Positions 3,732 to 5,635 of a stretch of 7,527 nt of DNA are shown here, piece by piece. This DNA comes from a virus (lineage: Duplodnaviria; Heunggongvirae; Uroviricota; Caudoviricetes), in the IMG/VR virus record IMGVR_UViG_2609460218_000012; one strand, given 5' to 3'. A program made the position numbers and the translations under genes. The first letter of the stretch is position 1. The number at the start of each line of letters is the position of its first letter. A model generated the notes under the pieces. It was not told the origin of the DNA and did not search any database. It worked only from the letters and a program-made list of their open reading frames with translations.

Positions 3732-3983
3732 TTAGTCCTGATTTTTATCCACCCTGAGTAGTTCGCGCAGAGCAAAGGCATCCCCTTTTCTGGCAAGCTT
3801 AAACAATGCCGCTCGTAACTCGGCTTCACCTTTCGCTCTGCCCTTACGGATGGCCGCATAAAAATCTGTCATTGCTTCCCGATTTTCTTTCAGTCGGTTC
3901 AGATCAACATCCAGAACGTCAGCGATTTGTTGTGCAGTCATCCGGCACGCTGCCAGAGACTCGACTTTCGAATACGGAATCAT
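3732..3983 (-). CDS. Small hypothetical protein (83 aa), possible HTH DNA-binding or packaging-associated protein
   Basis: ATG at 3983 preceded by a G-rich SD-like GGGGGTGA. Stop at 3732..3734, only 3 nt before the terS ATG, so tightly coupled. Basic helical sequence (..AAIRKGRAKGEAELRAALFKLARKGDAFALRELL..). Its 5' end overlaps the upstream gene by 65 nt, so the start is uncertain (alternative ATG at 3941). Confidence 0.5.
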   Translation of the reverse strand: MIPYSKVESLAACRMTAQQIADVLDVDLNRLKENREAMTDFYAAIRKGRAKGEAELRAALFKLARKGDAFALRELLRVDKNQD

Positions 3984-4851
3984 TTGTCACCCCCATTGAT
4001 ATGCAGGGTGTCTTCTTCCTGTATTTTTCGTGAAGGATTTTTACTGCAGCGTTGTTCCAGGTGACCTGATGGTGAATGCGTTTATGGCTGGCACCCATCA
4101 GTGAGATTTTTACGCACGACGGCGCATACATGACGGAGTAAAAACTTTTAACGTAGGTTCCGGAATCCAGATACAGCTCGGTCATTCCGCCGCTGTTTTT
4201 CTGCGTCTGTTTCTGCCCTAACTGGACAGCACCGATCGTCATAAACAATTCACCACAGCGACCGAGATTCGTGTACGTATTCACATCCTCGTTAATGCGC
4301 CCCATGAATGAGAACGGTCGATCAACCGAACAGATAAAGCTGTTCATTGCCTTGCGTTTCACCCACGAAGCATGGCCGCCATTGTCACCAAGAAAATCCC
4401 CGCCCTGCGACATAGCGATGGAAAGAGCAGGTATTGATTCGTAGTACGCCAGCATTTCAGAAAGGATCGCATCCAGTTTCCTTATCGGAAAATAGGCCTG
4501 GTCATAGTTGCGATCCACCCGAAACTGGAACTCGTGATAATCATCATCGAGCTGAATGAAGTATTTACACCCGACCAGTTTTGCCAGGTCGAAACAGGCA
4601 TTACGGGCGTAAAAAATTGAGCGGCGGTCACAGAAATTATCGGCTTCGTCAAAACGACTGGCGATATCGGCTTTGGAAAACACCAGCACCTGTTCACCAA
4701 ATTCAGCCATGTACTGATTCCGTGTCTTATCTTCATCATCAACAACGATAAAAATTTTCCCGGTATAGCCAGCACGACGCAACGTCCGGTAAGTCAGAAC
4801 TTTGTCCGGTCGCCCGTGAGTCAGAATAAAGGCGCAAAAATCATCACGCAT
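3919..4851 (-). CDS. GT-A-fold glycosyltransferase-like protein (DxD motif), function unknown; candidate DNA/protein-modifying enzyme
   Basis: 310 aa from ATG 4851 (MRDDFCAF..), which sits 5 nt after an AGGAGGAGG SD and overlaps the ParB-like stop by 8 nt. The track ORF extends to an upstream ATG at 4872. N-terminal pattern FILTHGRPDKVLTYRTLRRAGYTGKIFIVVDDEDK resembles the first strand-helix-strand of GT2-type enzymes (I.PTYNR...L...L.S.......EIIVVDDGS). Hydrophobic strand followed by KYFIQLDDDY is a classic DxD motif. Family assignment is by motif recognition only. Confidence 0.55.
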   Translation of the reverse strand: MRDDFCAFILTHGRPDKVLTYRTLRRAGYTGKIFIVVDDEDKTRNQYMAEFGEQVLVFSKADIASRFDEADNFCDRRSIFYARNACFDLAKLVGCKYFIQLDDDYHEFQFRVDRNYDQAYFPIRKLDAILSEMLAYYESIPALSIAMSQGGDFLGDNGGHASWVKRKAMNSFICSVDRPFSFMGRINEDVNTYTNLGRCGELFMTIGAVQLGQKQTQKNSGGMTELYLDSGTYVKSFYSVMYAPSCVKISLMGASHKRIHHQVTWNNAAVKILHEKYRKKTPCISMGVTNDSVFESRVSGSVPDDCTTNR

Positions 4852-5635
4852 ATTCCTCCTCCTCACCACCATGCATGATCTCCACCATGCGCTGCGTCAT
4901 CCGGACAAATCCATTTTCAATAGCCTGCTGATAATCAATGATCACCAGCGCCGACTCCTCGAAAAAACACTGAATTTCAGAGGGGGCGTGAGCGTAATAG
5001 TCCGCAATTCTGCTGAAATTAAACACCGTGTGACGTTCTGCCGCACACAGGAGGAATTTCTCAATATCAGGCTCAAGGGACGCCGAACGTATCCGGCTGA
5101 TCAGCTCCTGAGTTTTCGTATCGTCGTACAGTTCACTGATATCCGGTTTACCGCCCGACGGCTCATAAACAGGCGTATCAATTTTCGTCGTATACGGCTC
5201 CTCCTCATTTCCTGTACCGGGCAAAACATCCGTCAACAGTTCATCAATTTCTGTCGGGATGAAGCCTGTCAGGGAGACATCAAAATCAGCATTGATTAGG
5301 TCCGACAGCTCCATCCGCAACAGATCTTCATCCCAGCCAGCATTCATCGGCAGGCGATTATCTGCCAGGCGGTACGCCTTTTTCTGCTCATCCGTCAGGC
5401 CAGACAGAACAATGACCGGAACAGAATCCATTTTGAGCATTTCAGCCGCCATAACACGACCGTGACCCGCAATAATTTCGCCCTTTTCGTCAATCAGCAC
5501 CGGATTAGTCCAGCCGAATTGCTTAATACTTTCTACCAGTTGTGCCACCTGCTCAGGGCTGTGCGTCCTGGCGTTGTGCGCATACGGTGACAATTCTTGT
5601 AATGGGCGATAGACTATCTTTAATTTCTCGCTCAT
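4844..5635 (-). CDS. ParB/Srx-like nuclease-domain protein (ParB N-terminal domain plus about 160 aa C-terminal domain of unknown function)
   Basis: 263 aa; ATG at 5635 with AAGG SD. N-terminal 100 aa carry the ParB/sulfiredoxin-fold signature (..LIDEKGEIIAGHGRVMAAEML.., GHGR box). Acidic C-terminus (GGEEEEYA). May be the full-length counterpart of the short Rac remnant annotated next to trkG in E. coli K-12 (ynaK), but that is unverified recollection. Confidence 0.8.
   Translation of the reverse strand: MSEKLKIVYRPLQELSPYAHNARTHSPEQVAQLVESIKQFGWTNPVLIDEKGEIIAGHGRVMAAEMLKMDSVPVIVLSGLTDEQKKAYRLADNRLPMNAGWDEDLLRMELSDLINADFDVSLTGFIPTEIDELLTDVLPGTGNEEEPYTTKIDTPVYEPSGGKPDISELYDDTKTQELISRIRSASLEPDIEKFLLCAAERHTVFNFSRIADYYAHAPSEIQCFFEESALVIIDYQQAIENGFVRMTQRMVEIMHGGEEEEYA

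Follow-up and report, generated by a model that had tools for sequence, protein, structure and literature searches.

What could a ParB/Srx-fold protein and a putative glycosyltransferase (GT), encoded by two overlapping genes close to the packaging genes of a tailed phage, be doing together? The question is raised by IMG/VR record IMGVR_UViG_2609460218_000012, a stretch of 7,527 nucleotides (nt; the whole stretch is called the window here) in which a ynaK-like gene (263 amino acids, aa) is followed on the minus strand by a GT gene (310 aa). Results obtained on bacterial contigs and phage genomes show that the pair is a real feature, far beyond chance, and that the pairing is obligate and exclusive across bacteria and archaeal viruses. 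On profile and model evidence the 310-aa protein is clearly a member of the TAGT family with a GT-A fold. Its function is a more balanced matter: the reading in which a complex of a ParB-type activator and the GT would glycosylate phage DNA late in infection, before packaging, seems to us about equally likely to be right or wrong.

The family assignment of the GT is the firmest part of this answer. The protein matches Pfam PF20691 (TAGT) at E=7.6e-35 (121.1 bits against a cut-off of 27.5), with residues 8-222 aligned to positions 4-205 of a profile of 205, and over its full length it matches PHROG 842, named 'beta-glucosyl-HMC-alpha-glucosyltransferase' (E=1.1e-103). An earlier note on this DNA, made from the letters alone, had seen no signature that gives a confident function, a judgement that the clear TAGT signature overturns for the 310-aa protein. 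The two motifs on which that note had built its GT-A proposal (IFIVVDDEDK and KYFIQLDDDY) are both present, and the profile and structure searches it had asked for place the protein in GT-A/TAGT rather than in a family without glycosyltransferases. R14, D102-D104 and E188-D189-V190 are invariant among homologues. Active-site motifs of the form R...DDD...EDY/F have been reported for phage GT-A DNA glycosyltransferases and JGT (bioRxiv 10.1101/2023.12.21.572611); the DDD and EDV of the present protein may correspond to these in type, the third motif being EDV where the published triad has EDY/F. With its motifs intact the GT is probably catalytically intact. The conserved core comprises residues 1-290 (3982-4851), and the last ~20 residues are variable and overlap the next open reading frame (ORF).

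Structure prediction points in the same direction. In the AlphaFold2 (AF2) model residues 1-150 mostly have a confidence score (pLDDT) >85 and the C-terminal third is poorly modelled. Foldseek searches of the PDB with this model return the GT-A enzymes SpsA, K4CP, COLGALT1 and SunS, and among viral models the best matches are TAGT-domain proteins (E=4.8e-21, TM 0.64-0.70). The sequence itself has no match in the PDB, and PADLOC gives no defence-system match for the GT. The protein as a whole is mildly basic, and its C-terminal segment is basic too.

The T2/T6 enzyme by which a second glucose is added to glucosyl-hydroxymethylcytosine (hmC) belongs to TAGT, and the characterised members of this family put sugars on modified DNA bases (PMC13216743, PMC13390438); JGT-like phage GT-A enzymes glycosylate 5hmC (bioRxiv 10.1101/2023.12.21.572611). 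With the characterised enzymes (the T2/T6 beta-glucosyl-HMC-alpha-glucosyltransferase and the GT-As associated with TET/5mYOX), phage proteins that are structurally related to the trypanosome base-J glucosyltransferase, the present GT shares the family match, the GT-A fold, the DDD and E-D motifs and the phage origin. There are differences as well. Identity to TAGTs of T4-like phages is only ~23%, and in the searched loci and genomes no alpha-/beta-GT, TET/5mYOX or hydroxymethylase is found alongside. Unlike the characterised enzymes, moreover, the GT is encoded where the packaging operon begins in small temperate siphophages, and it has an obligate small partner domain that is undescribed for them. 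Solitary TAGT homologues of undefined function have been counted in 288 of 753 phages (PMC13216743), and the ynaK-paired clade is presumably among these; likewise, ~65% of GT contigs in another survey had no 5mYOX or ThyS neighbour (bioRxiv 10.1101/2023.12.21.572611). TAGTs that have neither a first GT nor a dioxygenase beside them count as uncharacterised in the literature compared.

The partner domain is the C-terminal domain of YnaK (C-domain), and its association with the GT carries the claim that the pair is obligate. We took 61 GT loci from contigs of one genome per species and scored 55 of them for the upstream neighbour. At 40-60% identity, these loci cover Proteobacteria, Bacteroidota, Veillonella and other Firmicutes, Verrucomicrobia, Spirochaetes, Ignavibacteria and further groups. 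In ~50 of the 55 the ORF directly preceding the GT, in the same orientation, is YnaK-like, and the exceptions are partial GT matches or GTs at a contig end; the conservation of the pair, on which the earlier note had made its proposal depend, is thus borne out. In the phage collection all 28 records with a C-domain have the GT immediately downstream, among them Lactobacillus gasseri phi jlb1, L. delbrueckii c5, phiLdb, PMBT4, Nocardia NTR1, Vibrio phages and the archaeal virus HHTV-2, and GT-positive records lacking the C-domain hold degraded copies or distant TAGTs only. Even the GT of a Porphyromonas phage, which is just 27% identical, is preceded by a homologous partner (E=3e-13). This partner (phage 005b, 3136-3993 of locus L148) has AGNKT for AGHGR, and with it no box II arginine, and several near-invariant C-domain residues changed; the phage keeps the arrangement ParB-GT-terS-terL.

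The two halves of YnaK behave differently in these comparisons. A stand-alone C-domain (~135-145 aa) is encoded directly upstream of the GT in loci L007, L021, L025, L035, L048 and L050 and in the 191-kb Vibrio phage pv27, where the pair lies among replication genes and not among structural ones. Mean distances are 0.51 for the GT, 0.53 for the C-domain and 0.66 for the ParB domain, which evolves fastest, and distances of the C-domain correlate better with those of the GT (r=0.65) than distances of the ParB domain do (0.53). The C-domain is the constant, dedicated partner of the GT clade and the ParB part an optional add-on. Duplications occur as well: L035 (6460-8903) has two tandem pairs of C-domain and GT, and L033 (2587-6158) and L040 (1-2328) have one YnaK followed by two GTs. 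In L033 the GT, and in L020 (189-1739) YnaK at its N-terminus, is fused to domains resembling class-I S-adenosylmethionine (SAM) methyltransferases, on Pfam matches that are weak and mostly below the gathering score. Tandem GTs and fused SAM methyltransferase domains would fit pathways of hypermodification in which a glycan is built. Apart from the partner, only downstream terminase genes recur beside the GT, and these fall into different, non-homologous clusters; the pair thus behaves like a mobile cassette that was inserted where the late operon begins.

YnaK itself was described in the earlier note as a ParB/Srx-fold protein of 263 aa with a GHGR box, and this description stands: AGHGRV occupies residues 56-61, ParB_N (PF02195) is matched above the gathering score (E=1.2e-6), and family match and fold both indicate ParB/Srx. 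AF2 predicts a confident domain at residues 1-95; helices follow at 103-134, then a segment of pLDDT <50 (136-165), and residues 166-255 form a small alpha/beta domain. The predicted disordered region harbours a near-invariant linear motif, Y148..P155.Y157..P164 (5144-5194). The protein is acidic (pI 4.5, net charge ~-25), and such strong acidity is unusual in a ParB-family protein expected to act on DNA. G57-H-G-R60 and D92-N93 are invariant among enterobacterial homologues; across the wider family 76% of clusters retain R60 and 87% retain N93. Among the database names are 'partition protein', 'transcriptional regulator' and 'ParB-like nuclease'. With canonical ParB proteins (Spo0J, KorB, Noc) YnaK has the ParB/Srx fold and the GxxR and D/E-N motifs in common, but it is acidic, is encoded in a phage late operon and has neither a helix-turn-helix (HTH) nor a ParA neighbour. 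We rejected a canonical partition ParB on the missing HTH, the lack of a parA nearby and a score of 38.5 against a cut-off of 58.45 for TIGR00180 (NCBIfam parB_part).

The nearest profiles of the ParB module are instead those of fusions between ParB and DNA methyltransferases (phrog_498, E=1e-50; PADLOC MTase_II, E=2e-38). YnaK residues ~3-144 most resemble the N-terminal module of these phage proteins, which are discussed as prophage-enriched DNA-modification proteins in PMC12704722. YnaK differs from them in having no methyltransferase domain; its effector is a separate GT, encoded by an overlapping gene and presumably recruited through the C-domain.

For the C-domain (searched with residues 136-263) a search among 1.84 billion cluster representatives yielded 1189 clusters at 50% identity. 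The domain always stands at the C-terminus, fused only to ParB_N, or occurs alone in proteins of 128-200 aa. It has no credible sequence match in Pfam or the PDB, where the hits are at chance level only (e.g. Adhesin A, E=0.06). PF23887 (Phage_Gene47) recurs as a weak match in 8 of 35 members (best E=0.007), which we do not take as membership. Near-invariant residues include R201, H202, Y214, H216, Q222, E226, S228 and D234. A cryptic enzyme was considered and downgraded, as several near-invariant residues are changed in the divergent Porphyromonas partner.

The junction between the two genes has the features reported in the earlier note, namely a start/stop overlap of 8 nt, with the ynaK stop codon inside the GT start region, and a strong Shine-Dalgarno (SD) run, which ends 3 nt before the GT start codon. 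The longest mechanical ORF would be 317 aa, from 4872; the 310-aa start was chosen because homologues and RefSeq begin at MRDDFCAF. Annotated homologous pairs overlap by 11 nt in phi jlb1 and HHTV-2, by 29 nt in c5 and by 17 nt in the Porphyromonas phage.

How might such a pair work? A class of phage thymine dioxygenases (5mYOX176/ParB176) requires a ParB-like protein on double-stranded DNA, and activators of the ParB176 type still activate when their NTP-binding residues are mutated (PMC13229309). YnaK resembles the 5mYOX ParB activators in its order of parts (a nucleotide-binding domain, short helices, a disordered linker of ~30-50 aa and a C-terminal domain), in the lack of a DNA-binding domain, in being encoded beside an enzyme of the type that modifies DNA bases, and in nucleotide-binding residues that are apparently not strictly required. 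The likeness is one of architecture, and it has limits: the partner of YnaK is a TAGT GT at every locus examined and not a TET/JBP dioxygenase, and here the ParB domain itself can be missing. In the dioxygenase study GT genes go mainly with the ParB-independent class (PMC13229309).

In the sequence of events that we propose, tailed phages, temperate and virulent alike, first express the ynaK-GT cassette along with their late (packaging) genes. Translational coupling would then deliver YnaK and the GT in fixed proportion, so that a complex could form. YnaK would act as activator or loader, its C-domain and linker motif holding the GT, and the ParB nucleotide-binding domain, where present, may contribute a dimer or clamp gated by NTP. 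The GT, which is mildly basic, would act on double-stranded, replicated phage DNA shortly before packaging, and the sugar-decorated genome would resist host nucleases. We infer all four elements of this scheme (the complex, DNA as acceptor, sugar transfer and an anti-restriction role) from the analogy with the ParB-dependent dioxygenases, the methyltransferase-type ParB module, the GT family and the cassette's place where the late operon begins. The earlier note had named the pair as a candidate for DNA modification; of this proposal the part that concerns the enzyme gains support, as the GT belongs to a DNA-glycosylating family, whereas no pathway for the acceptor base turned up in the searched loci and genomes.

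Several observations weigh against glycosylation of DNA by such a complex. TET/JBP proteins or hydroxymethylases are absent from the 25 most frequent of 48 families (132 upstream proteins, 27 diverse loci), from the downstream gene clusters of the pair, from the early region of the prophage in Escherichia coli SE11 and from the complete phage c5 (31.8 kb), in which none of the 50 ORFs fits and the pair forms the first two genes after cos. An association with alpha-/beta-GT, TET/5mYOX or dCMP/dUMP hydroxymethylase was likewise not seen in this material. In pv27 a thymidylate-synthase homologue is encoded beside dihydrofolate reductase (DHFR), within the first 50 kb of the genome, and looks like ordinary dTMP synthesis. 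Since every characterised TAGT/JGT needs a hydroxyl acceptor, DNA glycosylation would here need an acceptor outside the known chemistry. YnaK-like proteins (homologues in L004-L062) are strongly acidic in both halves (median pI 4.7, net charge ~-19), and YnaK has no recognisable DNA-binding domain, with no HTH family in the Pfam scan. The box II arginine is lost in ~24% of representatives and the ParB domain is absent altogether in some, which means that a clamp mechanism cannot be general. No natural fusion of YnaK and GT occurs in 145 loci, and AF2 models both the YnaK C-domain and the C-terminal third of the GT with low confidence. Finally, GREB1, a distant relative, is reported as a protein O-GlcNAc transferase.

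The lack of a precursor enzyme indicates that the classical TAGT/JGT acceptor is not supplied by these phages, and one way out is that YnaK-C/TAGT may directly glycosylate canonical, non-hydroxymethylated DNA, either on a normal base, through an exocyclic amine or oxygen, or at a DNA end that arises during packaging. A precursor enzyme would then be superfluous, and the ParB-derived partner would give access to the duplex. We put this forward tentatively and consider it rather doubtful.

An unlikely alternative is that the GT glycosylates a protein, either a packaging or virion protein of the late operon or YnaK itself, which would then be substrate or scaffold and not a DNA loader. The motif Y148-T-x-K-I-x-x-P-x-Y157-E-P in the disordered linker could serve as acceptor, as in the self-glucosylating glycogenin. 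This would agree with the absence of a hydroxylated DNA base from the searched loci and genomes, with the acidity of YnaK and its lack of a DNA-binding domain, with the two invariant tyrosines in its disordered segment and with the structural and packaging genes that adjoin the pair; protein glycosyltransferases (COLGALT1, SunS/ThuS and glycogenin) are also among the PDB structural matches of the GT. On the other hand, sequence and structure place the GT in TAGT, whose tested members act on DNA (PMC13216743), and the nearest counterparts of the ParB module are fused to DNA methyltransferases. The location of the pv27 pair among replication genes does not favour a virion target either, and given that the downstream terminases are non-homologous, no constant protein target is evident except YnaK.

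It is also improbable, and distinctly so, that the GT uses hydroxymethyl-pyrimidine or already glycosylated DNA from elsewhere, be it from an unrecognised phage or host hydroxylase or from the hmC or hydroxymethyluracil (hmU) genome of a superinfecting phage, in which case the prophage would practise defence or exclusion. Such an acceptor would have the merit of being the only chemistry known for the family (PMC13216743; bioRxiv 10.1101/2023.12.21.572611), and anti-phage hypermodification by prophage GTs has been raised as a possibility (bioRxiv 10.1101/2023.12.21.572611). A source might lie among genes distant from the pair in the larger phages, and the thymidylate-synthase homologue of pv27 might be counted in its favour. 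Phage c5, however, is without a candidate enzyme; defence by a lysogen does not fit the late-operon position and the occurrence in lytic phages; and a host-specific base is hard to reconcile with a pair conserved across E. coli, Lactobacillus, Bacteroides, Veillonella and Haloarcula hosts.

We regard it as very unlikely that the target is another nucleotide-containing molecule (RNA, a defence second messenger or a nucleotide-sugar intermediate), with the ParB/Srx protein as a nucleotide-binding or kinase-like subunit comparable to SerK or SbnI: the ParB domain is dispensable in the many members with a stand-alone C-domain, the PADLOC similarity to anti-defence families concerns the methyltransferase-type ParB module only, and no supporting gene context was found. 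That the two genes are unrelated and mere neighbours, a ParB-like nuclease, partition protein or regulator beside a cell-surface GT for lysogenic conversion, as the database names would allow, is hardly credible and is nearly excluded by the pairing statistics, given the exclusive co-occurrence of C-domain and GT with overlapping start and stop in many phyla and an archaeal virus, the duplicated cognate pairs, the absence of a ParA, HTH, membrane or flippase partner and the placement for late expression.

Parts of this picture are already known, namely the GT family and the link of ParB to DNA modification. Iyer et al. 2013 reportedly defined TAGT and discussed ParB in modification operons. 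The same work is cited in PMC13229309 for ParB directing modification machinery, and a survey of ParB folds (PMC12704722) does not mention glycosyltransferases. Literature searches on ynaK, on TAGT with ParB and on GREB1 with ParB returned no functional study. In the literature compared, which did not include Iyer et al. 2013, we found no description of the exclusive pairing of GT and C-domain, of the ParB-less form or of the absence of a precursor pathway.

Coordinates of the pair and its surroundings are collected in Table 1.

Table 1. Features of the ynaK-GT pair and of its neighbourhood in the window
Feature	Position	Strand	Basis or remark
ynaK-like gene, 263 aa	4844..5635	minus	ORF list, Pfam, RefSeq name ynaK
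ParB/Srx nucleotide-binding-type domain, YnaK residues 1-95	5351..5635	minus	box II G57-H-G-R60 at 5456-5467; D92-N93 box III-like
YnaK C-terminal domain, ~residues 144-256	4868..5206	minus	C-domain profile search; partner element of the GT clade
Gene junction	4844..4864	minus	SD run GAGGAGGAGG 4855-4864, GT ATG 4849-4851, ynaK TGA 4844-4846
Predicted TAGT-family GT-A glycosyltransferase gene, 310 aa	3919..4851	minus	Pfam, PHROG, homologue alignment, AF2/Foldseek
DxD-type motif D102-D103-D104 (QLDDDY)	4540..4548	minus	invariant in 15 homologues, 60-82% identity
Second acidic motif E188-D189-V190	4282-4290	minus	invariant in the same 15 homologues, 60-82% identity
trkG	~7230-5773	minus	first gene in transcription order, 5' of ynaK
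Terminator-like hairpin	5663..5686	minus	10-bp stem, 7 G-C pairs, T run; between trkG and ynaK; consensus scan only
Small ORF, context only, outside the pair	3732..3941	minus	69 aa in RefSeq; 83 aa if extended to 3983
terS	2634-3728	minus	packaging context, downstream; Pfam and RefSeq of identical SE11 locus
terL	1352-2653	minus	packaging context, downstream; Pfam and RefSeq of identical SE11 locus

Transcription on the minus strand would run from trkG past the hairpin to ynaK, the GT gene, the small ORF, terS, terL and the 5' part of a portal gene. The packaging genes match the Pfam families Terminase_2, Terminase_6N and Terminase_6C. The pair does lie upstream of terS/terL, as the earlier note had it, but not immediately so, for the small ORF intervenes between the GT gene and terS, overlapping the 3' end of the former. 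This ORF matches PHROG 309, 'terminase small subunit' (E=8.3e-23), only at profile positions 145-218, the middle of the profile. The product of terS (364 aa) has a long N-terminal region of low complexity, rich in lysine and glutamine, and the two may represent a split or two-part small terminase. The hairpin lies 28 nt upstream of the ynaK start, and expression of the pair past it would need read-through (e.g. Q antitermination) or a promoter of its own; the scan found no convincing promoter for the pair.

Over positions 167-7259 the window shares 99.86% identity with the Rac-like prophage of E. coli SE11, whose annotation lists the pair as a ParB/Srx family protein (named ynaK in other strains) and a hypothetical protein. 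The 2-kb region of the pair is present in 1600 of 5426 complete E. coli genomes (in 867 at a coverage of at least 80%), and ten deposited phage records contain it as well. At either end (1-166 and 7260-7527) the window consists of an insertion sequence (IS) of the IS3 family, the right one ISSen4-like; the left-end element occurs in 4761 of the 5426 E. coli genomes, with several copies apiece. Compared with the intact SE11 prophage, the IS elements cut the portal gene short and take the place of the lysis cassette that lies upstream of trkG. The present copy is a decayed Rac-like prophage, a remnant of 7.1 kb. Its ynaK and GT genes are intact and do not differ from those of complete prophages, though expression within a productive late operon may have been lost.

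Other observations concern the sequence around the pair. There are seven ambiguous bases (N at 1193, 3470, 6019, 7024-7025, 7081 and 7104) and four gaps relative to SE11, and X residues also appear in the translations of portal and terS. The trkG gene (5773-7251, minus strand) is split into three reading pieces (7251-7006, 7000-5963 and 6000-5773), reflecting either draft-quality sequence or a decaying gene. G+C over trkG (5750-7250) is 0.35-0.40 against 0.46-0.53 in the phage genes, which fits a foreign 'moron' between the lysis genes and the ynaK-GT-terminase block. The SE11 prophage (L001, 7908-9590) also encodes a type IV restriction enzyme of the GmrSD family (GmrSD_N and GmrSD_C); this family targets glycosylated-hmC DNA, and it may or may not be compatible with the product of the phage's own GT.

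Summarizing, characterised phage DNA glycosyltransferases all depend on a hydroxymethyl-pyrimidine made by another enzyme, whereas the paired clade, which is highly conserved (40-60% identity between members as far apart as those of E. coli, Bacteroides, Veillonella and an archaeal virus), travels without a precursor pathway in the loci and genomes searched. Two outcomes are in view: a new acceptor chemistry for DNA glycosylation, or a 'DNA' GT family redirected to another substrate. Glycosylation of DNA by the complex would extend the activation of DNA-base-modifying enzymes by ParB folds from dioxygenases to glycosyltransferases, and would single out the C-terminal domain, a part outside the ParB fold, as the specific adaptor. 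If canonical DNA is indeed glycosylated directly, temperate phages of many phyla and haloarchaeal viruses would carry a hidden sugar modification. As the module is found in common E. coli prophages (nearly 30% of complete genomes carry a prophage with it) and in small cultured phages such as L. delbrueckii c5 and L. gasseri phi jlb1, these outcomes are directly testable, and they bear on restriction evasion, phage engineering and sequencing artefacts.

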